DNA of 37,764 bases from a virus: IMG/VR virus record IMGVR_UViG_3300045988_156100; one strand, written 5' to 3'. The notes below the pieces were generated by a model. That model worked only from the letters and a program-made list of their open reading frames with translations, made no database searches and was not told the origin of the DNA. The position numbers and the translations under genes were made by a program. How positions within the stretch are numbered: position 1 is the first letter of the stretch; every line of letters starts with the position of its first letter. Of the stretch, positions 3,449-37,764 are shown piece by piece.

Positions 3449-6400
3449 TGTACGCTCCTCACGACTTTTACAGCCTCGGTACGGGCAAAAGCGCGCGTCT
3501 CTTCACCCGTCCAGGGGTTGGTGACAAGCGCGGTCACGTGAATCGACGCGCCAGACAGGCCAGCGCCAGAGCCGCCGGGGACACCGCCTGTCGCGTACGG
3601 CGACGCCGCCCCAGGGATGTACGTCCCACCGAAGATGTCGGCGATCTGCGCGAGGATAGCCTCGCTGCGCTTGCGCTTGGACTTGGCGAGGGGAATGTAC
3701 CCCTCGCCGCCCGTCTCGGGCTCGGCCCAGATGCGCCAGGCCCCTGCGGGGGCGATCTGCGCGACGTGCTGCTCGCGGTGGAAACCACCACCCGCGTAGA
3801 ATGACAGGACAGACCCGTCGGCCTGCGCAGACGGCCCGCCGCTCTGGCTGTACGTCCCGACGACGTTCACATACCAGGTTTGCCCATCCCATGTCGCCTT
3901 GATACTGCTCATGACGCTGCTGACGTAATCATTGGCATTGATATTGACGTACGGGTTGTACCCGTCAATCTCTGCCTTGATTGCATCGAGTTTCCTGTTT
4001 GCCTCGTCGTTATTACCGTCGATAGTGACGGTGCCAGTCGCCGCGTCGACCTCGCCAACAGCGGCCACCAACTGCGCGATAGCCGGATCCTTGTTGGCGT
4101 CAATATCGATGGTCCCGTCCTGATTCTGCGCATATCCCAACGTCTCTAGAATCGTCGTGATAGCCGAATCATTAACGGCATTGATAGTGATCGTTCCACC
4201 ATTCTGAGCCTGCACATATGCGATAAACGAATCAACAGACGCATTAGCTGCCTCTGTCTCAGCGGTCACGTGAGACTCAATGTTGGTGGGGATCAAATTC
4301 AGTTGATCCGCGAGCGCGGCAGCTTCATCAGATGAGAGGCCCATTGATTGGGCGACGCTGATGAAGTTGTCGCGCGTGAGCTGCATTGCGGCTTGCATGT
4401 CCTCCATGGTGGCGCCGTTTTTTTCCATGGATTCGACGAGCTTCCAGCCGGATTGTGCGAGGTCGTCGAGGGCGGCCTGGTTGGCGCGCCCGGCGGCAGT
4501 GGTGATGTCGAGGGTCTGGCCGTTCTTTTCCACTGCCGCATTGGCTGCGTCGATGGCATCGTAGAGGTCACGCCAGGACCCGCGTTCGCCCAGGATGATG
4601 TCCTGTAGAGTCTTTTGGGCGTCGATCAGGTCGTGTGTGGCTTTGGCCTGGTCCTCCATGGCCTTGGCTGCTTTGTTCGCGGCGCCCGCGAGCTGGTCCT
4701 GGGCGCTGCTGTTCTTGATTCCAGCTTCGGCGGCGAGGTCGTTTTGTTCCTTCGCCTTGGTGAGGGCTTCGCTCTCACTGTTGAGGGACTCTTTAACCTG
4801 GTTCGACAGTTCCAGGTATTCTTTCGTTTTTGCCGGGCTGGTCTTTGCAGCGTCGTGCGCAGCGGTTAGGGTGCGGTTAACGCGTTCCATTGCGTCGGAT
4901 GAGCCTGCGGCGGCGTCGACCAGGTCGTTGATGTCGCCGCCGAGCTGTTTGTAGGCGTCGGCTGCGGACTTCGCGCGCTTCGAGTCAAACAGCCGCCAGA
5001 ATCCGCTGTCGTCCTCTGATAGGTTGCGCAGGGCGATAGCGCGGGTCGATTCCGTCGCGGCGCCCGTGACGCTGTTCAGGCTTTCCGCGTATTCCTTGGC
5101 CGCGGCGGACGCGCGGGCTTGCTGCGCCTGGTAGTCGCCTAGGACGGCGGTCAGGCCGACCACGGCGGCGGTCGCGGCGAACCCCCACGGGCCGCCGAAC
5201 GCGCCCAGGAGCGCAGATCCCGCGCCCTTGGCGGCGTTGCCGATACCAGCCAGTGCGGGCGTCGCCGCCTGCGACAGGGCGCGAACGTTGGACACGCCGT
5301 TCGCGCGGGCGGTCACCCAGGCGTTGCCGAACCCGCCGATAGCGGCGCGGGTCTCCGTGAGGCCGCCGCGCATGCCGCTGAATCCGTCCATGATCCGGGT
5401 CAGGAATGGGATGGAGCCGTTCAGGGATTGCATGGCTGTACGAATGTCCATCACCATGGTAAACAGCTTCATGCCTCCGCCTGCGGCGAGTGCGGCGGCG
5501 GACGTGAATGCGGCGAGGCCGAGCGCGCCTTGCTGCACAGGTGCGGGGAGGGCGCTGAAGGCGTTGACGGCCTGCTCCGCGCCCTGCACGATGCTGCGCA
5601 GGAAGCTGTTAGCGCCGCTGCCGCTCTTGATGAACAGAGTCTCGAAGCTACCGCCGAGCTTCTCGATGTCGCCTTTGAGGTTGTCCATTCGGGCATTGGC
5701 GGTCTCCGCCGCGTAGCCGGCGTCGTTCACCTTATCAATCCAGGATTGGATGCCCTCTGCGCCCTGCTCGTACAGGATCGATGCTGCGCGGATTGCGTCC
5801 TGGCCGAACATCTTTTTGAGAGCCGCCTGACGGTCCTCTGCGGTGAGCTTCGACAGGCTGTCGTGTAGCTGGCCCGCGTAGGCGGCGAGGCCGACGAACT
5901 GGCCCTGCGCGTCATACGCGTGGATGCCGAGCTCTTCCATGTACTTCGCGGCTTGCTTGGACTGGGGTGTCATGTTCAGGAGCATCGTCTTGAATGACGT
6001 GCCCGCGTCGGAGCCAAGGAGGCCGGCGGCGGCGAACGATGCGAGCGCGCCGGTGGTTTCCTCGATGCTGAGGCCAGTCTGGGAGGCGACGAGGCCCGCT
6101 TGTTTGAGGGCCATGCCGAGGTCGGAAACGTCGCCCATTGCCTTGCCTGCACCGGCGGCGAGGAGGTCGGCGACGTGGCCGACGTCAGACCCAGAGAGCT
6201 TGAACTGCGTCAGGGCGACGGACGCGATGCCTGCCGCGTCAGCGACACCCAGGCCGCCCGCGGCGGCCAGGTCGAGCGACCCTTTGAGGCCGCCGTTCAG
6301 GATGTCAGCCGTAGACACACCAGCCTTGGCGAGCTCCTCGATTGCCCCGGCTGCTTCGGACGCGCTGAACGCGGTGTCGGCGCCCGCCTGAATCGCGGCC

Positions 6401-8303: not shown

Positions 8304-8509
8304 TACTTGTCTCCTTCGGTGAGGTGGTCGGTGGTGTCGTCCCCACTGTCGGGGGCGTCGATGGATTCGTCCTCCTGGCCGCAACACAGCGGTTCGCGGG
8401 CCTCGGGAGGCGGGGTGAGCGTCCAGTCCTCACCCCAGATCGGGTGCCCGATCCAGTGCTCGGGGATGTCCTGAAACTCCTTGGTTCGGGTGTTGTAGGC
8501 AGTGACCAT
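8303..8509 (-). CDS. Hypothetical small acidic protein
   Basis: 68-aa ORF tightly packed between the neck genes and the major tail gene. Confidence 0.5.
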   Translation of the reverse strand: MVTAYNTRTKEFQDIPEHWIGHPIWGEDWTLTPPPEAREPLCCGQEDESIDAPDSGDDTTDHLTEGDK

Positions 8510-16748: not shown

Positions 16749-17096
16749 TCAGTCCGTTTCGGTTCGGTCGTATTTGTGCGCCGCTTTTCCGCCAGCGCTT
16801 CGGTTGCAAAATCTGTGTTCTGGTCCGCGAATGATCAAACGATCTTCGTCATCATGACCAAGATCAAACGGTTCGCCTGCCTTGATGGGCTTACCACACC
16901 GCCAGCACACGGCCTGGCCGGCCTCCACTAGGCGGGCTGCCTGCGCCCGGGCGGCCCGGTAGTGGCGGTCATACCCGCGCGCGGTTGGGTAGCCGCGTTG
17001 CTGTTCGCGCTCGCGGCTGTGTGTGGGGCAGTGGCGGGGGCCGGGGTGTGGGATGAGGGCGGGGCATCCCGGGTGTGGGCAGCGGCGGCGGGTCAT
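16749..17096 (-). CDS. HNH endonuclease
   Basis: Cys/His-rich sequence CPHPGCP...HCPTH...CWRCGKPI...DLGHDDEDR...H, in the position just before the terminase genes. Confidence 0.85.
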   Translation of the reverse strand: MTRRRCPHPGCPALIPHPGPRHCPTHSREREQQRGYPTARGYDRHYRAARAQAARLVEAGQAVCWRCGKPIKAGEPFDLGHDDEDRLIIRGPEHRFCNRSAGGKAAHKYDRTETD

Positions 17097-17134: not shown

Positions 17135-17215
17135 TTGACTTAGCATCGCGCGCGGGCTATAGTTAGTGGTGTCAGGAGGGAACAAGCCCCCTGCATCTCA
17201 ACGAAGGAGACCCCC
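17135..17215 (+). promoter_or_regulatory. Promoter/leader cassette copy 1
   Basis: -35 TTGACT at 17135-17140, a 17-nt spacer, and -10 TATAGT at 17158-17163. The leader has a bulged hairpin at 17173-17193 and the SD AAGGAGA. It is about 85% identical to the cassettes at 32645.. and 33790.. Confidence 0.75.
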
Positions 17216-17491
17216 ATGGAAACCATCTACACCCCCGAGGACCTGGCCGAGGTTATCGAGCTGACCGAGGAGCCCACCCGCTTCACCACCCTTGACGAGG
17301 TGCGGGGTATGGTCCGTGACGCTATCGGCCTGGGCGACGACGCTGATGTCGAGGATCTGATCGAGGAGTGCTTCGGCTGGTACCAGGCGCTTGACATGAA
17401 CACCGGCACGATCAGCCTGAACCGTCAGGGCTTCTACCAGACCGTGACCGCCGCTGACTTCTGGAAGGCGGTCGAGCGGCTCGGCCTGTGA
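17216..17491 (+). CDS. Small acidic protein P1 (91 aa, unknown function)
   Basis: The only plus-strand gene inside the late region. It has its own promoter/leader and terminator. My hand count gives about 20 D/E versus 6 K/R. Confidence 0.75.
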   Translation: METIYTPEDLAEVIELTEEPTRFTTLDEVRGMVRDAIGLGDDADVEDLIEECFGWYQALDMNTGTISLNRQGFYQTVTAADFWKAVERLGL

Positions 17492-17507
17492 CCCACGGGT
17501 GATACAC

Positions 17508-17541
17508 AAGACCCCCGACCTGTTACCGGGTCGGGGGTCTT
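17508..17541 (+). terminator. Stem-loop terminator after P1
   Basis: The arms aagacccccgacc and ggtcgggggtctt form a 13-bp perfect stem with an 8-nt loop. Confidence 0.7.
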
Positions 17542-20066: not shown

Positions 20067-20995
20067 GCTACTGCGCCTCCTTCGATGGCGATCAGGCTGG
20101 GCTGGGTGGGGTCCTGGTGGTTGGGGTCGAGGCTGTCAGCGAGGGCGAGCCAGCCGCTGACGCGGTCGTCGGTGGTGGCACGCTGTACGGGGCCACGCTG
20201 TGGGCCGTGGGCTTGTTCCTGGCAGCGGCGCGCCCAGTTGCGCCACGTGGCCGCCCAGTCGGCGCGGACGGCTCGCTGCCCTGAGAGCGATTGCCAGTAG
20301 TCCCGAAAGCGATCAAGCTCAGCAGCGTTCGCCGCGGCGGGGGCGTTGACCTTGGTCCAGGCAATGAGGGCGTCGTCTGGCACCCAGCCGTCGGGCAAGC
20401 GCGTCCCACGTGACGCTCGGGTTCGCTTCGAGGGCTTCGAGGGCTTCGAGGGCTTCGAGGTTGCCGGGTCCGCGTCAGCGGACACGGTCTGAGACTCAGC
20501 GCTCGCGGTCGGCGCGTCAGCGTTTTCGTGAGGGGGCCTAAAAGGGGTGTCCTTCCCTGTTCCCTGTTCCCTGTTCCCTGTTCCCTGTTCCGGGAGTGAG
20601 GCCTCAGTGAGTGTGCAGTGAGGACTCACTGAGGCCTCAGTGAGTGTGCAGTTTTCGGCGTTATATTGCGGGAAACGCGGTTTTGACGGTCGGTTGATTT
20701 TCTGGTGTTTGTCCCAACTGTTCACCTGCAGGTATTTGCGCCCGTCGGGGCCCTTATATCGGGTGATTAGACCCTGCTGTGAGAGGCGCATGAGGCCTCC
20801 GTGAGTCCTCACTGAGGCCTCACTGAATGTGTCGAGAGGGTACAGGTCACACTGGATGAGTTGGGGCGCGTCGCGGCCCACGCCGTTGTCCTCAACGTAT
20901 GACCACAGGCCGATGAACAGGAGCCTGTCCTCGATGCTCAGGGCTGCGATGTCCTCGCTGCGCCAGAATTCAGGTTTGATGGTTCGGATGCGCAC
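20063..20995 (-). CDS. Replication initiator / replisome-organiser-like protein with an internal repeat array
   Basis: 310 aa. The N-terminal MRIRTIKPEFWRSEDIA...RLLFIGLWSY and the C-terminal FRDYWQSLSG...WRNWARR resemble phage replication-organiser proteins. The central part is encoded by DNA repeats. Confidence 0.6.
   Translation of the reverse strand: MRIRTIKPEFWRSEDIAALSIEDRLLFIGLWSYVEDNGVGRDAPQLIQCDLYPLDTFSEASVRTHGGLMRLSQQGLITRYKGPDGRKYLQVNSWDKHQKINRPSKPRFPQYNAENCTLTEASVSPHCTLTEASLPEQGTGNREQGTGKDTPFRPPHENADAPTASAESQTVSADADPATSKPSKPSKPSKRTRASRGTRLPDGWVPDDALIAWTKVNAPAAANAAELDRFRDYWQSLSGQRAVRADWAATWRNWARRCQEQAHGPQRGPVQRATTDDRVSGWLALADSLDPNHQDPTQPSLIAIEGGAVA
20426..20822. repeat. Origin-like repeat array inside the initiator gene
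   Basis: The array has five parts. cttcgaggg occurs 3.9 times at 20426-20460. ccctgtt occurs 5 times at 20555-20589. The 22-mer tgaggcctcagtgagtgtgcag occurs at 20597 and 20630. A 20-bp perfect palindrome lies at 20625-20644. TGAGGCCTCA boxes recur at 20791 and 20813, flanking a less G+C-rich spacer. Confidence 0.6.
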
Positions 20996-29743: not shown

Positions 29744-29967
29744 GCGGCCTCCTCGGTTCGGGTTTCGACGTCGGCCATAAAACGGCTCGGGGTCTCGTAC
29801 CCGAGGGCGGCGCTGATGGCGGCGATCTCGCCTAGCGTGAAGTCGCTCTCACCTGAGAGTTTGCGCGCAAGCGTTGTTCGCGAAAGTCCAACCTGCTTGG
29901 CGAACGCGCGGATTGAGACCCCGGCGCTGTTGATCCGCGCTTTCAGCTCAGTTTGAACTGTGTTCAA
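29740..29967 (-). CDS. Cro-like XRE-family HTH regulator
   Basis: TTG at 29967 lies 7 nt after aaggagg. The product carries ...SIRAFAKQVGLSRTTLARKLSGES... The gene is divergent from the repressor gene. Confidence 0.7.
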   Translation of the reverse strand: MNTVQTELKARINSAGVSIRAFAKQVGLSRTTLARKLSGESDFTLGEIAAISAALGYETPSRFMADVETRTEEAA

Positions 29968-29988
29968 TGGTGTTCCTCCTTTCCGGGG

Positions 29989-30104
29989 TGGCCCATTTGT
30001 GGGCCGCATGTGAGTAACCATAGTGGCCCAGAAGTGGGTCAGTCAAGTCGAAACGCGAAAATTGATGACGCAATGTCCCTACCAGGTGGCCCGTTTCTGG
30101 TCCA
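29989..30104. promoter_or_regulatory. Immunity switch: three operators plus divergent promoters
   Basis: Operators with consensus TGGCCCA-N4-TGGGCCA lie at 29989-30006, 30024-30041 and 30087-30104. The leftward promoter has TTGACT (30046..30041), an 18-nt spacer and TATGGT (30022..30017), with an operator in the spacer. The rightward -10 CATAAT (30103-30108) ends 7 nt before the repressor ATG. Confidence 0.65.
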
Positions 30105-30115
30105 TAATTGGGCGC

Positions 30116-30385
30116 ATGAGTGTCACAGCATTTGAGCCGCACGACTTCGAGCAGGCCGTCGCCGCCGCCCTACGGGCCGAAATGAGCCGTCAAGGCATAT
30201 CTCAGCGCACACTTTCAACTCGGTCGGGAGTTTCCCGGTCGCGGCTGATGCGAGTTCTTGCAGAGGAGGGCCAAACCGCGCCCATGACTGTCACGGTGCT
30301 AGAGGCCTTATGTCGTGCTCTCGGCGTATCCATGACACGGATACTCACTGACGCTGAAACCATGCTCGCAACCGGGCGGGCATAA
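30116..30385 (+). CDS. CI-like XRE-family repressor
   Basis: Start taken at MSVTAFEPHDF... The HTH is ISQRTLSTRSGVSRSRLMRVL. The gene is divergent from the early operon and is probably leaderless. Confidence 0.7.
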   Translation: MSVTAFEPHDFEQAVAAALRAEMSRQGISQRTLSTRSGVSRSRLMRVLAEEGQTAPMTVTVLEALCRALGVSMTRILTDAETMLATGRA

Positions 30386-30389
30386 AAAC

Positions 30390-30422
30390 AGACCCCACCA
30401 GGACGTCACACTGGTGGGGTCT
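30390..30422. terminator. Stem-loop terminator (U-tract only on the minus strand)
   Basis: The arms agaccccaccag and ctggtggggtct form a 12-bp stem. An aaaaac run precedes it on the plus strand, which puts GTTTTT after the hairpin on the minus strand. Confidence 0.65.
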
Positions 30423-30510
30423 CGCGCATTTAGAACGCCCGTGCGCGCGGGCAAACCCAGGGGGCCGACCCTGGTGTCAATATGTGTGCGCTCAGGTGAG
30501 CATATCACGG

Positions 30511-30528
30511 CGGCCCACTAGTGGGCCA
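30511..30528. promoter_or_regulatory. Distal fourth operator-like palindrome
   Basis: cGGCCCActagTGGGCCa matches the operator consensus. Its core ggcccactagtgggcc is a perfect 16-bp palindrome. Confidence 0.5.
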
Positions 30529-30543
30529 GATGAGAGACGCGAG

Positions 30544-30588
30544 CCGCCGCCCCTGCCATGACATTCCCGATCATGGCAGGGGCGGCGG
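30544..30588. other. Perfect 18-bp stem / 9-nt loop hairpin
   Basis: The arms are ccgccgcccctgccatga and tcatggcaggggcggcgg. Confidence 0.8.
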
Positions 30589-31297
30589 GGTTCGCGCATG
30601 TGAGGCCGGCGCGGGCGGCCCGGGTCTCTCGCGTCGGGGCGCGGTTTACCCAAGAGAGAACCGCCCAGCTACCCGAAGATGCCGAGCGATCGGTTACCTC
30701 AATTATACGCCTGGCCGCCCACATCTGCGTCCAGGCGTGGCCACTGATATGAGAAGTCCCCACACGGAACCTTGCGGAAGTGTGGGGGCGCTGCCACTAG
30801 CTTAGCTCGCGGCGGGCGCATCTGTAGACATGAGAGCCACCCCCGCGCCGTGAGAGGCCCAGTCAACGGCATAGGGGGCGGGATCTGCGCATTGTAGCCC
30901 GCGCATGGGCCGGGGCTGCGCGGGCGAACCACGCTACTCCTAACGGCTAGGTCGCACCCCGCGGCGGGCCGGGGCCTGCAGTGCCTAACCTCGATATGGC
31001 CCCGGTCATTTGTGCGTGAAAACAGAGGCCCGACCGGGGGTCTGTCGCCCCTATCCTACCTCGCAGCGGGTGCATCTGCGTCCCCACGCGCGGCTCTGCG
31101 CGAGGCAAGGTGTAAAGACAACCAGCCGCGAGCGCAGCGCCGACCGACCGCGCTTTTTGGTGCGTGTCACGTGACACGCGCGCAACGTCACGCAAGGGTG
31201 TTTTAGGCCCATTCAAGGCTAGTCAGAAAAGCCGACTTTTCGGCGGAAAATCAACACCTTTGCCCGCCCGCGCGCCGCAAACGCCGAAACACCCTGC

Positions 31298-31324
31298 GGG
31301 GGGTTCGATTCCCCCCATCTCCAC
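31298..31324 (+). other. attP core: 3' end of a tmRNA or tRNA (T-arm plus acceptor 3' strand), not a full gene
   Basis: GGGGG-TTCGATT-CCCCC is followed by CATCTCC, discriminator A, then C. No complementary 5' acceptor strand exists upstream. The site lies 137 nt upstream of int. Confidence 0.65.
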
Positions 31325-31460
31325 AACAAAAACCGCATGATTCTGCGGTAAACTGAGGGTGTGAAAACAGCGTGACACGCCTGCGTGACACGCACGCTAA
31401 TTTAGCGGAGTACAATCAAGATCAAGCAAAGCACCTCAACATCAAGCAAGGCGGCGCAAA

Positions 31461-32624
31461 ATGGCTTCTGTCAAGGCAGTGAAGCACCGTGACGGCACCG
31501 TCGTGTATCGCGTCCGCTACCGCGCGGGCGGGCGCAACCCCGTCGTAGAGACGTTCTACGACGCCGCGACCGCGCAGCGCTTCGCCGACCTCGTCGACCG
31601 CGTCGGCGGGGCCGCCGCACGTGAGATGCGCAGCCTCGACGACCTGGCCGCCGCCGATACGCCGACCGTCGCCGCGGCGTGCGAGCATCACCTCGAGGCC
31701 CTCGCCGCGTCGGCAACGCCCGGCACGATCAGCAGATACAGGCAGATCGTGCGGGACCGGATCGAGCCGCGCCTCGGCCTCATCCCCGTCGACATGCTCA
31801 CCCGGCACACAGTCGCCAAGTGGGTCGCCGAACTACGCCGCACGCCCGTCACTCGAGGGGCCACCGCCGGCCAGCCGCCGTCGGCAAAGACTATCCGCAA
31901 CGCCCAAGCATTCCTATCCGCTGCCCTGCAACGCCTCGTCGACGAGGGCGTGATCCCAAGGAACGTTGCCAAGGGCGTGCCCCTACCCAAAGATGCGACC
32001 GTGCGCGAGATGCGCTTCCTAACCCCCGACGAGTTCGCGCGCCTCCACGCGTGCATACCCGCCGATTACCAGCCCTTCGTCGCGGCCATGTACGGGCTCG
32101 GCCTGCGCTTCGGCGAGGCAACCGCCCTCACGGTCGCCGATGTCGACCTCGACGTCGTACAACCAGTCGTGCGCGTCAACAAGGCGTGGAAGATGGGCGA
32201 GAACGGCGTGCCCTACATCGGGGCACCAAAAACCAAGCGGGCGCGGCGTACCGTCACCATCCCCGCGCCCCTCATCCCTGAGCTGGCAGGTGCGCTCGCG
32301 GGCAAGTCGGCGGACGATCTTGTATTCACGGCCAGGCGGGGAGGTCCGATCACCTCGGGACCGTTTCACGCCCACATCTGGCAGCCTGCGTGCGATGCGG
32401 CGGGCCTATCGCCGCGCCCGCGCGTGCATGATCTGAGGCACTCGCACGCTTCGGCGCTGATCGCTGCGGGCGTCCCCCTGCCCGTCGTTCAACGGCGCAT
32501 GGGGCACGAATCAATCCAAACCACTGTCGATGTGTACGGGCACCTCGCGCCTGATGCGTACGCGGGCGCTGCTGAGGCCATGAGCGTGGCCATGGGGGGT
32601 GTGTCCCCTCAACTTAGCATGTGA
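31461..32624 (+). CDS. int: Tyrosine integrase
   Basis: 387 aa. The C-terminal HDLRHSHASALI...GHESIQTTVDVYGHL is the tyrosine-recombinase catalytic signature. It has an SAM-like N-terminal domain. Confidence 0.9.
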   Translation: MASVKAVKHRDGTVVYRVRYRAGGRNPVVETFYDAATAQRFADLVDRVGGAAAREMRSLDDLAAADTPTVAAACEHHLEALAASATPGTISRYRQIVRDRIEPRLGLIPVDMLTRHTVAKWVAELRRTPVTRGATAGQPPSAKTIRNAQAFLSAALQRLVDEGVIPRNVAKGVPLPKDATVREMRFLTPDEFARLHACIPADYQPFVAAMYGLGLRFGEATALTVADVDLDVVQPVVRVNKAWKMGENGVPYIGAPKTKRARRTVTIPAPLIPELAGALAGKSADDLVFTARRGGPITSGPFHAHIWQPACDAAGLSPRPRVHDLRHSHASALIAAGVPLPVVQRRMGHESIQTTVDVYGHLAPDAYAGAAEAMSVAMGGVSPQLSM

Positions 32625-32644: not shown

Positions 32645-32726
32645 TTTGCATGATAGCCCGTGCGCGGGCTATAGTTAGGTCATCGGGAGGGAACAAGCCC
32701 CCCGAACCTCAACAAGGAGAAAGACA
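32645..32726 (+). promoter_or_regulatory. Promoter/leader cassette copy 2
   Basis: TTGCAT at 32646-32651, an 18-nt spacer and TATAGT at 32670-32675. The leader hairpin is at 32684-32704 and the SD is AAGGAGA. The spacer carries the inverted repeat ATAGCCCG-tgcg-CGGGCTAT. Confidence 0.75.
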
Positions 32727-33068
32727 ATGACCACCACGACCTGGACCAAGGCAGAGCGCTTCGACGGCGAAGGCGCCCTCATTGCCGCCGACCTCGACAA
32801 CGGTGCCCGCGCCGTCGTCTACGGCGAATACCAGGATGGAATCAAGATCAGCATGTTGATCTTCAACGATGCCCTGCCGGGCGGTAGCGCCTCGACCGAA
32901 CGCACACAGGATTGGCCGCTCGTTGAGCGCTACATTCCCCGCGCCGAGTGGCCTGCCGAAATCTGGGGTGGCTACCATGGCCCCGCCGAACGCACCCCCG
33001 ACCCCGAGGTTGCCGCCGCCGTCGCCCAGTACGTCGCCGAGACGAACGCTTGGCTTGTCGAGGACTGA
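32727..33068 (+). CDS. Small acidic protein P2 (113 aa, unknown function)
   Basis: First gene behind cassette 2. My hand count gives about 19 D/E versus 8 K/R. Confidence 0.75.
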   Translation: MTTTTWTKAERFDGEGALIAADLDNGARAVVYGEYQDGIKISMLIFNDALPGGSASTERTQDWPLVERYIPRAEWPAEIWGGYHGPAERTPDPEVAAAVAQYVAETNAWLVED

Positions 33069-33130
33069 TCAACAAACCCAAGGCCCCCGCGCTCACCACA
33101 GGACGCGGGGGCCAACCCATAGGAGGAGAT

Positions 33131-33541
33131 TTGACCGGACCACTCACCCCAGCCGGCCTGCGTTGCCGGCGCAAGGCACTAGGGCTCACCCGCGCTGAGC
33201 TTGGCTACCTCATCGATGCACCCGAGAGTGCGATCCGCTCGTGGGAGATAGGGAAGGGGGCACCGCGTGACCCGATCAGTGTCCACATGCTGATCGGCAA
33301 CCTTGAGGACGCCGCCCTCGACTGTGTTGACGAACTGACGGCCCCCGCTGACGATGAGAACGAGGACGTGCGCGTCATCCCCACCGCACTTATCACCTAC
33401 GTCGACCAGGCCTCCTACGAACATGGGTGCGAGTGGGCCGACCGGCTCCCCTTGTCCACATATCAGGCATGCGTGGGCCGCGCCTTCGCCCTCCTGGCAG
33501 ACCAGGATATCCCTGTCGAAATCATCACACGGACTAACTAA
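33131..33541 (+). CDS. XRE-family HTH protein with a C-terminal domain of unknown function
   Basis: TTG at 33131 follows aggagga. The HTH is LRCRRKALGLTRAELGYLIDAPESAIRSWEIGK. Confidence 0.65.
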   Translation: MTGPLTPAGLRCRRKALGLTRAELGYLIDAPESAIRSWEIGKGAPRDPISVHMLIGNLEDAALDCVDELTAPADDENEDVRVIPTALITYVDQASYEHGCEWADRLPLSTYQACVGRAFALLADQDIPVEIITRTN

Positions 33542-33552
33542 GGAGTGTACTC

Positions 33553-33768
33553 ATGACCCGCGAGTACCTTGGCGCCGCCGACTTCGCGGCCCGCGCAGGC
33601 CTTGCCCCTGCGACGATCAGGTCGTACATGCGGAAGGGCCTGACCCCGCCCGCTGACGTGCAGATCAGCACCCCGAATGGGCCCCTGCGCGGATGGTCTA
33701 CTGAGACAATCGACGCCTGGCTCGCATCAAGGCCAGGTCAGGGCGCGCGAACCGACCTGCGCAAGTAG
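33553..33768 (+). CDS. Excisionase-like (HTH_17/MerR-type) DNA-binding protein
   Basis: 71 aa with LGAADFAARAGLAPATIRSYMRKG...GWSTETIDAWL, preceded by the SD aaggag. It lies in the integrase-proximal region. Confidence 0.6.
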   Translation: MTREYLGAADFAARAGLAPATIRSYMRKGLTPPADVQISTPNGPLRGWSTETIDAWLASRPGQGARTDLRK

Positions 33769-33789: not shown

Positions 33790-33869
33790 TTGCACTATGC
33801 ATCGCGCATGATGTATAGTTAAGTCATCGGGAGGGGAAAGCCCCCCGAAACTCAACGAAGGAGAACACC
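33790..33869 (+). promoter_or_regulatory. Promoter/leader cassette copy 3
   Basis: TTGCAC at 33790-33795, an 18-nt spacer and TATAGT at 33814-33819. The leader hairpin is at 33828-33847 and the SD is AAGGAGA. Confidence 0.75.
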
Positions 33870-34262
33870 ATGGACATCTACGCCGCCACCCAAGCGTTCA
33901 ACGCAGCCGCCAACAAGGCATGGACCACCTGCGACATCATCGATATCCCCGGATGCCCCGGGTGGACGTTCAACGGCCCCGCGCGGCCCACCGTAGGCTT
34001 CTTCGTCGCCATTAGCTACGACGGCCGCGAAATTGCCCGCGCCGACGGCGACGAAGCCGATCCGATGTCGATTCACTTCTACCCGACTCCGCGCGAGGTC
34101 GTCGAGCTTGACGATTTCAAGTGGATCGTCAGGATGATTCGTCAGGGCTTCCTTCTCAGCCTCGACTCCGAGTTCAACCACTGGCTCGCGAACTGCGAGC
34201 GCTTGAGCTATCACTGGGACTTCGATCCCGGGGTCGGAGTGACGGCCCCCGCCGAAGTCTGA
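33870..34262 (+). CDS. Small acidic protein P3 (130 aa, unknown function)
   Basis: It lies behind cassette 3 and is followed by a terminator. My hand count gives about 19 D/E versus 9 K/R. Confidence 0.75.
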   Translation: MDIYAATQAFNAAANKAWTTCDIIDIPGCPGWTFNGPARPTVGFFVAISYDGREIARADGDEADPMSIHFYPTPREVVELDDFKWIVRMIRQGFLLSLDSEFNHWLANCERLSYHWDFDPGVGVTAPAEV

Positions 34263-34271
34263 CAATAAGAG

Positions 34272-34312
34272 AAGGCCCCCACCACCCATGCGAATTGGGC
34301 GGTGGGGGCCTT
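34272..34312. terminator. Bidirectional stem-loop terminator between convergent genes
   Basis: The arms aaggcccccacc and ggtgggggcctt pair, with an inner CCCA/TGGG extension. T-rich flanks are present on both strands. Confidence 0.7.
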
Positions 34313-34323
34313 TCGGTGGCCTG

Positions 34324-35175
34324 CTAGGGGTGGATGTCGGAGGGCCGCGAGCACATGAGGCCGCGCGCTCCCTTAGAGAAGGCCGTCGACGCCTGTCCGC
34401 TGTTCGTGACGATGTGGGCAATGGTGGGTTTCCCGGTCGACGTCAGCATCGTCCATGCTGACGTCGAGGCGTTCCATTCGAGGCCGAGGACGTCCCACTC
34501 GTCAAATCGGGCGTCCGCGAGCTCTGTCTCGTAGAACATGCACATGGTCTTGTAGCCGCGTGCGCGAGCGCGGCGCGCGCCGCCGCCCTTGATAAAGCTC
34601 TTCCAGATCACCCGCTCCTGCGGTCGACCGTTGAAAGCTGCATCGAGGGCCTCATACAAGTCAAGCTCAGACTGCAGGTCACCTTCGGACGCGTCGGCTT
34701 TCGAGGACGTCGTTTTGTGGTCGACTGCGAGGATGACGTCCTTCGGGATGTTGTCGAGGACCTCGTCGAGGAGCATGATCGGCCCAGACGCCTGCTGCAG
34801 TGTTTTGAGTGTCTCCCAGGGCGTGTTCCAGATCGCGTAGTCAGATCCGGGTACAGTGCGGCTGGTTTTCCAGTCGTGCATGAGCACGTACTCACCGCTC
34901 CCGCACCGGCGGACGGAGAGCTCTAGCGCCTTGAAACCAGCGCGCAGCGACGCGTCCAGGCCGCGGCGCGTGAACTCCGGGTACTCGTCTCCACCTAGTC
35001 GGTGGCTGATGTAAAACGGGCGGCCCTGGAAGAAGTTTGCGACAAGGTCCGTGCGCGTCTCGCCGGTTTCGCCGGGCGCGTACAGGCGCTGATCACCACC
35101 ATCGCGGCGACGCCGATACAGACGTCCGACAACGTCGCCGCCCTCGCGGTGACGTACGTGCAGTTGGTTGCTCAC
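34324..35175 (-). CDS. Glycerophosphodiester phosphodiesterase (GDPD)-like protein
   Basis: GTG at 35175 forms a GTGA overlap. ISHRLGGDEYPEFTRRG...KALELSVRRCGSGEYVLMHD resembles the GDPD pattern HRG..PENT...E.D....vv.HD. Confidence 0.6.
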   Translation of the reverse strand: MSNQLHVRHREGGDVVGRLYRRRRDGGDQRLYAPGETGETRTDLVANFFQGRPFYISHRLGGDEYPEFTRRGLDASLRAGFKALELSVRRCGSGEYVLMHDWKTSRTVPGSDYAIWNTPWETLKTLQQASGPIMLLDEVLDNIPKDVILAVDHKTTSSKADASEGDLQSELDLYEALDAAFNGRPQERVIWKSFIKGGGARRARARGYKTMCMFYETELADARFDEWDVLGLEWNASTSAWTMLTSTGKPTIAHIVTNSGQASTAFSKGARGLMCSRPSDIHP

Positions 35176-36233
35176 TTGGGGATCACCACCTGCACGCCGC
35201 ACCCGTTTGTCGCCTGGACGTTGGGGTAGGTGAAGATCGCCTGGTCAGAGCCAGTGGCAGTGCGCTTGGCGACGACGATGGTCTCCCACGCCTCGCCTTC
35301 CTGCAGGGCAGAAACGATCTTCTCCCAGCCTGCAGATACGCTGATCTGCTCGTCTGTCTCGTTCGCGGATGTGCGCTCACACGCCACCGCGAGCGCCAGG
35401 CCCTCGGTTTCGACGACAGGCGCAGTCACCGTCACAGTCTCGGTAGGTTCTTCGTTGCGTTTCTTGACAGCGCCGACGACCGGCTGGCCGCCGCCGCGCA
35501 CGACAATGGCTGCCCACGATCCGGTCACGGGCTTGGAGGTAATGACCTCCATGGTCTCAGCCCATCCGCCGGTCATGATGACGAACCGCATTGTGCCCTG
35601 ATAGTAGGGCTGTAGGAGAGTGTCCCACCCGGTGGGGGCCGTGAAGCCTGCGTCGCCGCCCTTGGTGTTGAGGATGAGGATGACGCGGTCCCCTGCCTGG
35701 CCGCCCGCCGCAGTCACGGTGATGCGGTCGCCTGCCGCGCGGCCAGCGGCATGCGCGACCACTGTGGGAGCCGCCACCGGCGCGGGGCCAGGCGAGGGCA
35801 CATCCGCGGCGAGGAGATAGATTTCCCCGTCCGCGAGCTCAGCGGCCTCCTGCTTCGAGCGCACGACCTTGATGGATGCGAACGCGACGGGATTCCCGTC
35901 GCCGTCGACGATCACGGTGCCGCCCGGCTGAGGGGTCGGCGTGGGCTGGGATCCGGGGGAGAGGAGCTCGCCGATCTTCATGACCTGCCCGTCGGTTAGC
36001 TGCACCTCGCGTTCGGCGAGGATCGCCGACGTCGCCGTCGTCACCGTCAGGACATAACGCCCTGGGGTGAGCGACGTATCGATGTTTCCGTCCTGCGCGT
36101 CGGTGAGGAGACCGCCCACGACGATATCACCCGCTTGCGTGCGCGAGGGGTTGGGCACGGGGGTAGCGTTGAGCGCGACCGCGACGGGCTTTCCGGTCGG
36201 GCCGGTAACGCGCCCGCGAATTGAGACAGCCAT
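35172..36233 (-). CDS. CarboxypepD_reg-like beta-sandwich protein with Pro-rich linkers and a C-terminal domain of unknown function
   Basis: 353 aa. The N-terminal IRGRVTGPTGKPVAVA...LTPGRYVLTV fits the carboxypeptidase-regulatory-like fold pattern. Confidence 0.5.
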   Translation of the reverse strand: MAVSIRGRVTGPTGKPVAVALNATPVPNPSRTQAGDIVVGGLLTDAQDGNIDTSLTPGRYVLTVTTATSAILAEREVQLTDGQVMKIGELLSPGSQPTPTPQPGGTVIVDGDGNPVAFASIKVVRSKQEAAELADGEIYLLAADVPSPGPAPVAAPTVVAHAAGRAAGDRITVTAAGGQAGDRVILILNTKGGDAGFTAPTGWDTLLQPYYQGTMRFVIMTGGWAETMEVITSKPVTGSWAAIVVRGGGQPVVGAVKKRNEEPTETVTVTAPVVETEGLALAVACERTSANETDEQISVSAGWEKIVSALQEGEAWETIVVAKRTATGSDQAIFTYPNVQATNGCGVQVVIPK

Positions 36234-37132: not shown

Positions 37133-37764
37133 GCACCTGCCTTGATGGCGGCGGCGATATCGTCGGCGAGGAGCTTGCGGCGGGCGGCGGCGTCGGCGGC
37201 GATGGAAGCGATGTCGCCGTCGTCGAGGCTGACGGTGTAAGAGTCGTCGAGGGCGTATGCCTTCACCATGTCCGTCCACGTTTTGGCGGACTTCATGGAG
37301 GTGACTGCCAGGGGGGTGACTGCGTAGATGGTGCCGGTTTGCCGGCTTCGGATGAACTGCATCTCTTCTTCCTTGTGTTCGGGTTCGGTTGACGTGTCGG
37401 TGCCGTTGACGAGGGCCATGTAGTAGGCCCAGGGGAAATTGACCCCCGGGTCGGTGTGATCAGACCGCTTGTATACGCGGCTGACCTGGTCGTGGCCGAC
37501 GAAACCGGACTCGCCGGCTGCCAGTTCGGCGTCCGTCAGGTGACGGAGTGGGATGCCGAGGCTGTCGGCGATTTCGCGGGTCGCTGTAGCGGATAGCTGG
37601 AGCATGGACAGGGACGCAGCGTCGCCCCATTCCTCGGGGGATTGCCGGGCGTACCCGGCATGCTCGACCTGATAGCCATCTGAATTGCAGCCGGGGGCTG
37701 CGAACGCGACGGCGGATGCGGGTAGGCAGTACACGACTGAGTCCTGGTCGACGCACATGTGCGC
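37129..37764 (-). CDS. Endolysin, 3' portion (amidase plus C-terminal domain); the 5' end is at 56..202 after circularisation
   Basis: The sequence ...GYQVEHAGYA...GHDQVSRVYKRSDHTDPG... resembles the Amidase_2 type. The frame continues across the junction, giving 260 aa in total. Confidence 0.8.
   Translation of the reverse strand, partial: AHMCVDQDSVVYCLPASAVAFAAPGCNSDGYQVEHAGYARQSPEEWGDAASLSMLQLSATATREIADSLGIPLRHLTDAELAAGESGFVGHDQVSRVYKRSDHTDPGVNFPWAYYMALVNGTDTSTEPEHKEEEMQFIRSRQTGTIYAVTPLAVTSMKSAKTWTDMVKAYALDDSYTVSLDDGDIASIAADAAARRKLLADDIAAAIKAGA

Follow-up and report, generated by a model that had tools for sequence, protein, structure and literature searches.

Recurrent promoter and stem-loop cassettes, putatively mobile, in front of unrelated accessory ORFans of temperate siphophages from oral Actinomycetaceae

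Why should a single phage genome carry the same promoter and the same structured leader in front of three small genes that are unrelated to one another? The question is raised by a stretch of 37,764 nt, IMG/VR record IMGVR_UViG_3300045988_156100, read on one strand from 5' to 3' and called the window hereafter. An earlier note on this DNA had pointed out three such regions, each followed by a gene for a small acidic protein. It had argued that the shared leader implies one common regulator acting on a set of anti-defence or lysogenic-conversion genes, and had found nothing to which the arrangement could be likened. The three regions are where they were said to be, and an architecture of this kind has in fact been described, in the promoter-early stem-loop (PeSL) cassettes of T4-type myoviruses (Arbiol et al. 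2010, PMC2839356; Comeau et al. 2014, PMC4122927). We consider it reasonably probable that what recurs here three times is a PeSL-type expression cassette, mobile and self-contained, which serves accessory ORFans in temperate siphophages of oral Actinomycetaceae. A dedicated common regulator is not required for such cassettes.

The module is about 85 nt long and occurs in the window only three times, at 17135-17215, 32646-32726 and 33790-33869. The pattern TATAGTTA-N3-12-GGAGGG-N3-8-CCCC has three exact matches in the window where 0.00 are expected, the heptamer TATAGTT is confined to the same three sites, and a covariance model of the module, run over the whole window with filters off, scores them at 93, 90 and 64 bits, the next best site reaching 13 bits. 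Its parts come in the order promoter, stem-loop in the spacer that separates the -35 box from the -10 box, GC-rich leader hairpin, unpaired linker, Shine-Dalgarno sequence and ATG. The promoters are those that had been described, i.e., a -35 box TTGACT, TTGCAT or TTGCAC, a spacer of 17-18 nt and the -10 box TATAGT. The extent of the module needed revision: promoter and leader do form a unit, but the conserved unit reaches further upstream than proposed, into the promoter spacer, which is itself a covarying palindrome. The G+C content of the modules is 0.48-0.58, against 0.65 for the genome, and the 20 nt 5' of the -35 box, a place where PeSLs are AT-rich, are only moderately AT-enriched in the window copies.

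All three copies lie on the plus strand. Copy 1 opens with a promoter at 17135..17163 (TTGACT at 17135-17140, a 17-nt spacer, TATAGT at 17158-17163) that matches the consensus at 10 of 12 positions and whose spacer palindrome is partial. The predicted transcription start, placed from the position of the -10 box only, is at about 17170-17171, 1-3 nt before the stem of the leader hairpin at 17173..17193 (CAGG-A-GGG / CCC-CCTG, with the loop AACAAG at 17181-17186). The linker CTCAAC and the Shine-Dalgarno sequence GAAGGAGA occupy 17197..17210 and end 5 nt before the ATG of P1, an acidic ORFan of 91 aa (17216..17491). Copy 2 begins 21 nt past the stop codon of the integrase gene, with a promoter at 32646..32675 (TTGCAT, 18-nt spacer, TATAGT) that contains a spacer hairpin at 32653-32672 (ATAGCCCG-TGCG-CGGGCTAT). 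The predicted start, A32682, directly precedes the leader hairpin at 32683..32705 (UCGGG-A-GGG / CCC-CCCGA, loop AACAAG), which folds at -15.7 kcal/mol (z = -3.0); the linker CTCAAC and AAGGAGA (32708..32720) lead to P2, an acidic ORFan of 113 aa (32727..33068). Copy 3 begins 21 nt past the stop codon of the MerR-like gene. It has its promoter at 33790..33819 (TTGCAC, 18-nt spacer, TATAGT), a spacer hairpin with one G·U pair at 33794-33819 (ACTATGCATC...GATGTATAGT), a predicted start at A33826, a leader hairpin at 33827..33848 (UCGGG-A-GGG / CCC-CCCGA, loop GAAAG), the linker CTCAAC with GAAGGAGA at 33851..33864, and P3, an acidic ORFan of 130 aa (33870..34262).

How far does the module extend beyond the window? 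A scan of IMG/VR for the exact pattern gave 23 stretches, all but two of which hold the full module with its promoter. In a scan of 185,579 species genomes, true copies were found only in one contig of an Actinomycetaceae metagenome-assembled genome; 35 of the 37 matches fell in unrelated taxa and were discarded as chance matches. The module is absent from 50,697 isolate phage records, and megablast and blastn against isolate phages returned no match. A covariance-model census of related phages, which the earlier note had suggested, yielded 106 matches, corresponding to 93 distinct copies. The relatives come from human oral metagenomes and from records labelled 'uncultured Actinomyces/Actinomycetaceae'. 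We also collected loci independently of the motif, anchored either on the integrase (85-94% identical) or on the XRE-type helix-turn-helix (HTH) protein (down to 58% identical). Nearly all of them carry modules, in a layout with one module directly behind int and a second behind the MerR-like gene, and modules whose neighbouring HTH protein is only 58-69% identical still score 74-98 bits. No module was present at loci with a distant integrase (21-42% identity). The module recurs in this phage group alone. Genomes have 2-3 copies, beside int/attL on the lysogeny-side strand (where the accessory ORFans lie) and as one insert in the late region.

A diverged second group of lower G+C content has the same layout and synteny with different sequences, and scores only 25-33 bits against the model. 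Its order is module, cargo, GC hairpin, TTG-start XRE HTH gene, xis-like gene, module, cargo, and with a metagenome scan its distinct copies came to 14. In 49 aligned copies the -10 box does not vary, and AAGGAGA stands 5-8 nt before the ATG in all copies.

The pattern of substitutions shows that the leader hairpin is strongly selected, though not absolutely required. RNAfold predicts it in all three window copies, at -13 to -16 kcal/mol and with 7-8 bp and the bulged A that had been noticed. At its second pair, copy 1 has A-U where copies 2 and 3 have G-C, a difference that had been taken as a compensatory change and a sign of selected structure; that argument gains from two further independent double changes in relatives. 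Pairing has thus been preserved through three independent changes from G-C to A-U: in the CAGG...CCTG allele, for which there are no intermediates among 11 copies, in the inner stem of locus L233 (GAG...CTC), and in L246 of the diverged group (GAGAGG...CCTCTC). Single changes produced G·U variants of the stem in L121 and L243, and a few copies (L151, L193) have single changes that break it. Over the 93 distinct copies, 97.8% of the cells of the leader helix are paired and four of its eight pairs change on both sides, values that 0 of 500 shuffles reach, while slid controls pair at 39-51%. The earlier note had named free variation without preserved pairing as an outcome that would count against a selected structure; it was not seen.

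Variation avoids the stem. In 49 unique copies the stem has a column entropy of 0.10, whereas the value is 0.45 for the linker, 0.53 for the loop and 0.79 for the segment from the -10 box to the stem; the loop varies in length between 4 and 6 nt. In every copy, pairing begins at the 8th-9th nt after the -10 box, and the base before it is always a purine. In the second group the stem is longer (9 bp, GGGAGGAAG/CTTCCTCCC) and the A that bulges out in the window pairs with U. Both groups keep GGGAGG in the 5' arm and CUC in the linker without exception.

The second helix lies in the promoter itself. The spacer is an inverted repeat that starts where the -35 box ends and reaches into the -10 box, of the type ACTATACATCG-N4-CGATGTATAGT or GATAGCCCG-N4-CGGGCTATAG, and in the second group CACCCCAY-N4-GTGGGGTG followed by UAUAGUUUU; its loops are variable. 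Like the leader helix, it is under purifying selection with compensatory changes: six of its 11 pairs change on both sides and 89% of the cells are paired. The non-Watson-Crick cells comprise 87 G·U on the plus strand against 13 A·C, and the plus-strand RNA fold is about 2.5 kcal/mol more stable than that of the minus strand. Since duplex DNA would not produce such a wobble asymmetry, the spacer helix appears to act as plus-strand RNA, transcribed from upstream. The mean fold is -10.6 kcal/mol for copies after int (n = 26) and -12.4 kcal/mol for those after the MerR-like gene (n = 40); it is weak at the P1 locus (-5.2 kcal/mol, n = 8), where the upstream gene is divergent. Besides the spacer stem-loop, no hairpins lie between the upstream stop codons and the modules of the window. 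The plus-strand wobbles, the weakness of the helix where no co-directional gene lies upstream and the lack of any other upstream hairpin argue that the spacer helix is probably a terminator or insulator for upstream transcripts, overlapping the promoter.

The genes served by the module are as different as had been claimed. P1, P2 and P3 (91, 113 and 130 aa) fall apart in BLASTP clustering, and hhalign gives a probability of 0.3% for P1 against P2. With net charges of -14, -11 and -10 and pI of 4.1-4.4, the products of the window are acidic as described, but acidity is not a rule of the whole family. Behind the 51 first-found copies, over which cargo families were counted, stand six unrelated families (at least six overall): F0, of about 137 aa and a net charge of -19 to -27, which is not in the window; F1 (113 aa, to which P2 belongs); F2 (130 aa, P3); F3 (about 91 aa, P1); F4 (114 aa), which is basic with a pI of about 9; and F5 (121 aa).

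Comparison of the loci shows that cargo has been exchanged between conserved flanks. F3 is found at the P1 locus in some phages and behind the MerR-like gene in others, F0 occurs at both positions in the lysogeny module, and one F1 gene has a chimeric N-terminus whose initial seven codons are those of F2. Where they stand at the first position, F0, F1 and F4 have a common 3' flank made of a GC hairpin, AACCCATAGGAGGA and the TTG start of the HTH gene. In the window this conserved 3' boundary is the GC-rich hairpin at 33082..33113 behind P2 (GGCCCCCGCG...CGCGGGGGCC), which has no U tract and is followed by AACCCATAGGAGGAGAT and the TTG start. The copies within one genome have been homogenised by recombination as well, i.e., they show concerted evolution: the two lysogeny-module leaders of a genome are 0.894 identical, against 0.838 and 0.863 for same-position leaders of different genomes (permutation p < 1e-4, 31 genomes). 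Several within-genome pairs are identical, and in one the identity continues into the gene for seven codons. Some palindromes are hybrids whose two arms, left and right, belong to different types, which indicates crossovers in the spacer loop.

What the cargo does is a separate matter. No family matched Pfam, PHROGs, PADLOC, NCBIfam or PDB sequences. F1-F3, the families represented in the window, are confined to this phage group, and a P1 profile search against 1.84 billion representatives found only 25 relatives, all small uncharacterised proteins. AlphaFold2 models P2 confidently (predicted local distance difference test, pLDDT, 84.5) and P1 weakly (66); Foldseek searches with these two models had best E values of 0.4-1.0; P1 had no fold match, and P2 none in the PDB. 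Sequence, profile and fold searches thus show no defence or anti-defence function for any cargo, and the suggestion of an anti-defence set finds no backing in them.

PeSLs are conserved sequences of about 100 bp that hold a sigma-70-type promoter and end at the 3' side with a Shine-Dalgarno sequence and a start codon (PMC2839356, PMC4122927). Their stem-loop, often polyG/polyC with G-T pairs, lies mostly between -35 and -10 and terminates transcription (PMC2839356). Both promoter and terminator activities have been demonstrated; PeSLs flank ORFans and recombine with crossovers in the loop, and their conservation has been explained by promoter, terminator and ribosome-binding site function together with recombination (PMC2839356, PMC4122927). 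The module of the window resembles them in most parts. It is a conserved intergenic sequence of about 90 bp that starts at an upstream stop codon and ends with a Shine-Dalgarno sequence and a start codon; it has sigma-70-like boxes at a spacing of 17-18 nt and a stem-loop with G-T pairs between them (a weak helix in copy 1); and it is repeated before unrelated ORFans, with cargo shuffled by recombination and hybrid palindrome arms.

The differences are those of setting and of one added element. PeSLs belong to lytic T4-like phages of Gram-negative hosts, whereas these cassettes are in temperate siphophages of high-GC Actinomycetaceae. PeSLs are early promoters in the hyperplastic regions of T4-type genomes; here, instead, each genome has its 2-3 copies on the lysogeny-side strand beside int/attL and in the late-region insert. 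There is no sequence similarity between the two, and the cassette described here has an extra, nearly invariant hairpin inside the transcribed leader. PeSLs are moreover marked by demonstrated activities and by mini-circles; the promoter and terminator activities of our cassette are predicted from its sequence. We therefore class it, on its architecture, as a variant of the PeSL kind outside the T4-type set, because the window is a temperate siphophage-like genome.

How would such a cassette work? We infer that its near-consensus promoter would be read by the housekeeping sigma factor independently of any regulator, in the lysogen and early in infection. The spacer stem-loop would form in a transcript that comes in from the co-directional gene upstream (ssrA/int, or else the HTH operon) and would stop or attenuate it, insulating the cassette from its neighbour. 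The leader hairpin, 0-3 nt past the predicted start, would stand at the 5' end of the cassette mRNA, where it could protect against 5'-end-dependent decay and keep the ribosome-binding site in a constant context whatever the cargo. The cargo gene closes with its own GC hairpin. The roughly 90 shared bp let copies recombine, so that they are homogenised within a genome and cargo is swapped between loci and between phages.

By analogy, the leader hairpin is most likely a 5'-terminal mRNA stabiliser or insulator that has been added to the PeSL layout. 5'-terminal stem-loops stabilise mRNA in ompA and papA of E. coli, and the aprE leader of B. subtilis does so together with ribosome binding (reviewed in PMC3997798). 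Like the ompA and aprE leaders, the one described here has a hairpin near the predicted start, then an unstructured stretch and a strong Shine-Dalgarno sequence, and is portable between coding regions. Such stabilisers have about 0-4 unpaired nt at the mRNA 5' end, with which a stem opening 8-9 nt past the -10 box, behind a purine, would agree. It differs from these stabilisers in that the sequence of the 5' arm is conserved, and not just the structure, and in that a stabilising function is deduced from the likeness.

A looser analogue is found in Cluster K mycobacteriophages, whose start-associated sequences (SAS) and their extended forms (ESAS) place a motif with a Shine-Dalgarno core directly 5' of the start codon in genes that belong to different families (Pope et al. 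2011, PMC3203893). The 13-bp asymmetric consensus GGGATAGGAGCCC stands 3-7 bp before start codons at 11-19 sites per genome, among lytic non-structural genes and without a promoter, sometimes with inverted repeats that have variable spacers (PMC3203893). What is shared is a repeated, Shine-Dalgarno-containing motif in an actinobacteriophage; unlike the ESAS inverted repeats, which do not covary as RNA, both helices of the module do. The window lacks the consensus GGGATAGGAGCCC; its one match with 2 mismatches, against 1.1 expected by chance, is not at a module.

The insert in the late region invites a further comparison. Morons, in lambdoid phages, are genes that have been inserted between phage genes and bring along a promoter and a terminator of their own. 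P1 with copy 1 is just such a single gene: it is the only plus-strand gene between the minus-strand HNH/terminase genes and the early genes, in an orientation opposite to that of the late region and kept in relatives, and it has its own hairpin terminator at 17510..17539 (GACCCCCGACC...GGTCGGGGGTC), usable in both directions and also conserved in relatives. Its isolation and its terminator had been noticed before, and its layout supports the reading of P1 and copy 1 as a moron-like insert that would be transcribed independently. The P1 locus is syntenic in relatives and decaying in one, and P1 is present or degraded independently of its neighbours, as morons are. We know of no shared conserved flanking cassette in classical morons, whereas here the regulatory unit is itself the repeated and recombining element.

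Could the leader nevertheless be the site of a common regulator, as the earlier note had it? On that account it would be a cis-regulatory RNA bound by one dedicated trans factor, an RNA-binding protein or small RNA of phage or host, which would recognise three features, a hairpin whose GGGAGG arm does not vary, a bulged A and a CUCA box, and make a post-transcriptional regulon of the cargo genes. Such recognition would agree with a 5' arm (GGGAGG) and a linker (CUC) that stay invariant across both groups while the 3' arm and loop change, with an A at the bulge position in almost all copies, and with a module better conserved than the neighbouring protein genes. Yet the loop is free to vary in both length and sequence, U takes the place of the bulged A in L233, in the diverged group that base may be paired or mismatched, and much of the sequence identity is explained by gene conversion. 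We found no candidate factor, no complement of the linker and Shine-Dalgarno sequence elsewhere in the window (a near match at 8310-8324 was rejected as a trans-acting complement, being a coding 3' end with an ordinary Shine-Dalgarno sequence) and no Rfam family for the leaders, either at the gathering score or at E <= 1; CCTCAAC, which occurs 11 times in the window, was likewise rejected as a specific box. The analogous PeSL cassettes need no such factor. A trans factor is thus unlikely in our estimation, and the same doubt attaches to its corollary, that the leader would be a site through which interchangeable accessory genes are switched together and that new cargo joins the regulon by recombining behind the cassette. 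The shared leader alone does not imply a common regulator, given homogenisation, cargo swapping and the PeSL precedent, and we found no support for one. A regulator acting on DNA seems quite unlikely too. The inverted repeat spans exactly -35 to -10, the classical position of an operator, and a dimeric phage regulator, e.g., the XRE-type HTH protein encoded at 33131-33541, might bind it and repress all cassettes; the HTH gene is always linked to the cassettes, in both groups, and its variant starting with MPRNP occurs only with type-1 palindromes (8/8). The pairing is not strict, however, since HTH proteins of the window type occur with both palindrome types (17 and 6), and there are at least three unrelated palindrome sequences, two of them in one genome (copies 2 and 3 of the window). 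The arms covary instead of keeping fixed bases, the mismatches favour G·T on the plus strand (87) over A·C (13), between which a site in duplex DNA would not discriminate, and hybrid arms with a broken palindrome retain an intact promoter. The GGGCCAC-type repeats of the immunity switch are absent from the modules, and the leader inverted repeat is itself disfavoured as a dimer site of fixed spacing on DNA because its loop length, hence the spacing of its arms, changes between 4 and 6 nt.

Two other accounts need no regulator at all. The copies might be remnants of recent duplication or gene conversion, with functionless hairpins that hitch-hike with a useful promoter and ribosome-binding site. 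The strong concerted evolution within genomes, the narrow phage group (integrases 85-94% identical) and the narrow cargo families would be expected of remnants. Neutral hairpins, though, would hardly be spared by variation that sits in the loop, spacers and linker and avoids the stems, nor would they retain pairing through three independent compensatory double changes and several G·U variants; the diverged group, at 25-33 bits, keeps both helices with different sequences, and the module persists where flanking proteins are down to 58-69% identity. We regard this account as very unlikely. Least credible to us is that the leader hairpin, instead of stabilising the mRNA, is a transcriptional element acting on its own transcript, either pausing or attenuating it close to the promoter, or else terminating upstream transcripts a second time. 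The stem-loops of PeSLs, often polyG/polyC, can sit just 3' of the -10 box (PMC2839356), and P2 and other cargo in this phage are followed by terminators that are likewise GC hairpins lacking a U tract. But an efficient terminator at this place would abort its own mRNA; no U tract follows the leader hairpin, for which reason we rejected it as an intrinsic terminator, and a consensus pause in the linker was rejected in turn, its G-10/Y-1/G+1 spacing being lost in the common variants CTCAAAG and CTCAG.

The PeSL-type reading has difficulties of its own. In the window's group, the U tract of the spacer stem-loop is poor, and the weakness of the helix at the P1 locus (8 copies) comes effectively from a single lineage. 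Alignment A6, which holds the 93 copies, was fitted to the model. Many copies are not independent of one another, and concerted evolution makes conservation look stronger than it is. The diverged group includes copies with a degenerate leader hairpin, so that it cannot be indispensable, and the 5'-terminal position of the hairpin is predicted purely by its spacing from the -10 box. The leader stem is also conserved in sequence beyond what a generic stabiliser would need, which would fit a sequence-specific partner. All these points weigh against the reading we prefer.

If the PeSL-type reading holds, promoter and stem-loop cassettes that express and shuffle ORFans, hitherto known from lytic T4-type phages, would extend to temperate phages, and to a new setting in phages of high-GC oral Actinobacteria, where they stand beside the integrase gene and in a late-region insert. 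As a sequence flag, the cassette makes accessory genes cheap to find. It turns six or more uncharacterised cargo families, most of them very acidic, into candidates for roles in defence, counter-defence or lysogenic conversion in Actinomyces, and the cassette itself could offer Actinomyces genetics a compact and insulated expression part that does not depend on the cargo.

The DNA of the window belongs to a temperate siphophage of oral Actinomycetaceae, and ssrA, the tmRNA gene, is where it integrates. An exact direct repeat of 55 bp at its ends (1-55 = 37710-37764) indicates a circularly closed contig of 37,709 bp and probably a complete phage genome, of 65% G+C. The genome is siphophage-like, and its terminase is about 52% identical to those of Arthrobacter phages. 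Nearly all genes (terminase, portal, head, tail and early genes) are on the minus strand; the few on the plus strand are P1, a CI-like HTH gene, the integrase, P2, the XRE-type HTH gene, the MerR/excisionase-like HTH gene and P3. An integrase, an attP at the ssrA 3' end and a CI/Cro-type switch mark it as temperate. The tyrosine integrase gene (31461..32624, plus strand) is co-directional with copy 2 and immediately 5' of it. The attP core at 31299-31315 is identical to the tmRNA 3' end (Rfam E 0.007 over 31299-31325), and a related prophage in a 179-kb host contig lies directly after the tmRNA gene (L239, 4070-4447), with int and cassettes co-directional with ssrA; integration at ssrA follows from these two observations. 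The repeats GCGTGACACGC / GTGTCACG that flank the attP core at 31160-31185 and 31368-31395 are probably arm-type binding sites of the integrase. A search of the window for tRNA genes found none.

Among the neighbours of the cassettes, the XRE-type HTH gene (33131-33541, plus strand, TTG start) and the MerR/excisionase-like HTH gene (33553-33768, plus strand) are conserved between copies 2 and 3. The TTG start of the XRE HTH gene comes right behind the GC hairpin and a conserved AACCCATAGGAGGAGA, at 33114-33133 in the window and at the same place in relatives, and the arrangement of hairpin, ATAGGAG and TTG is kept even in the diverged second group. This layout suggests regulated read-through or coupling from the cassette at the first position. 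A bidirectional terminator at 34272..34312 separates P3 from the minus-strand late genes, of which the nearest encodes a glycerophosphodiester phosphodiesterase (GDPD) domain protein (34324-35202) at the end of the tail/lysis block. On the side of copy 1, the HNH endonuclease gene (16749-17096) adjoins the small terminase gene and is directly divergent from P1.

A few loci of relatives depart from the common layout, L062, L090 and L081 holding decaying copies. In L062, at about 6161-6260, the block is lost, a deletion having fused a promoter remnant to the 3' end of the MerR-like gene. L090 (3919-4201) has a mutant -10 box, TCTAGT, and a P1 gene that an internal deletion has shortened to 66 aa, and the start codon in L081 (2517-2600) is ACG. 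Locus L169, of the second group, has its first cargo gene (2541-2930) duplicated behind the xis-like gene (3912-4253); the second copy has a GTG start and no module of its own.

The immunity switch lies at 29965-30130 and 30512-30527, with divergent HTH genes of the CI-like (plus strand, about 30122-30385) and Cro-like (minus strand, TTG start at about 29965) types. It has a promoter TTGACT-18-TATGGT on the minus strand (30046-30017) and four GGGCCAC-type repeats, with repeat coordinates 29988-30092 and 30512-30527; a perfect palindrome, GGCCCACTAGTGGGCC, is found about 400 bp away. The roughly 0.9 kb between the CI-like gene and attP (about 30390-31290) hold several hairpins and no convincing open reading frame (low GC3). 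Repeats with a period of 11 bp (GTGAGGCCTCA / CTGAGG...) form two clusters, at 20585-20648 and 20790-20831, in or beside a minus-strand open reading frame of 310 aa, and could be iterons or an origin.

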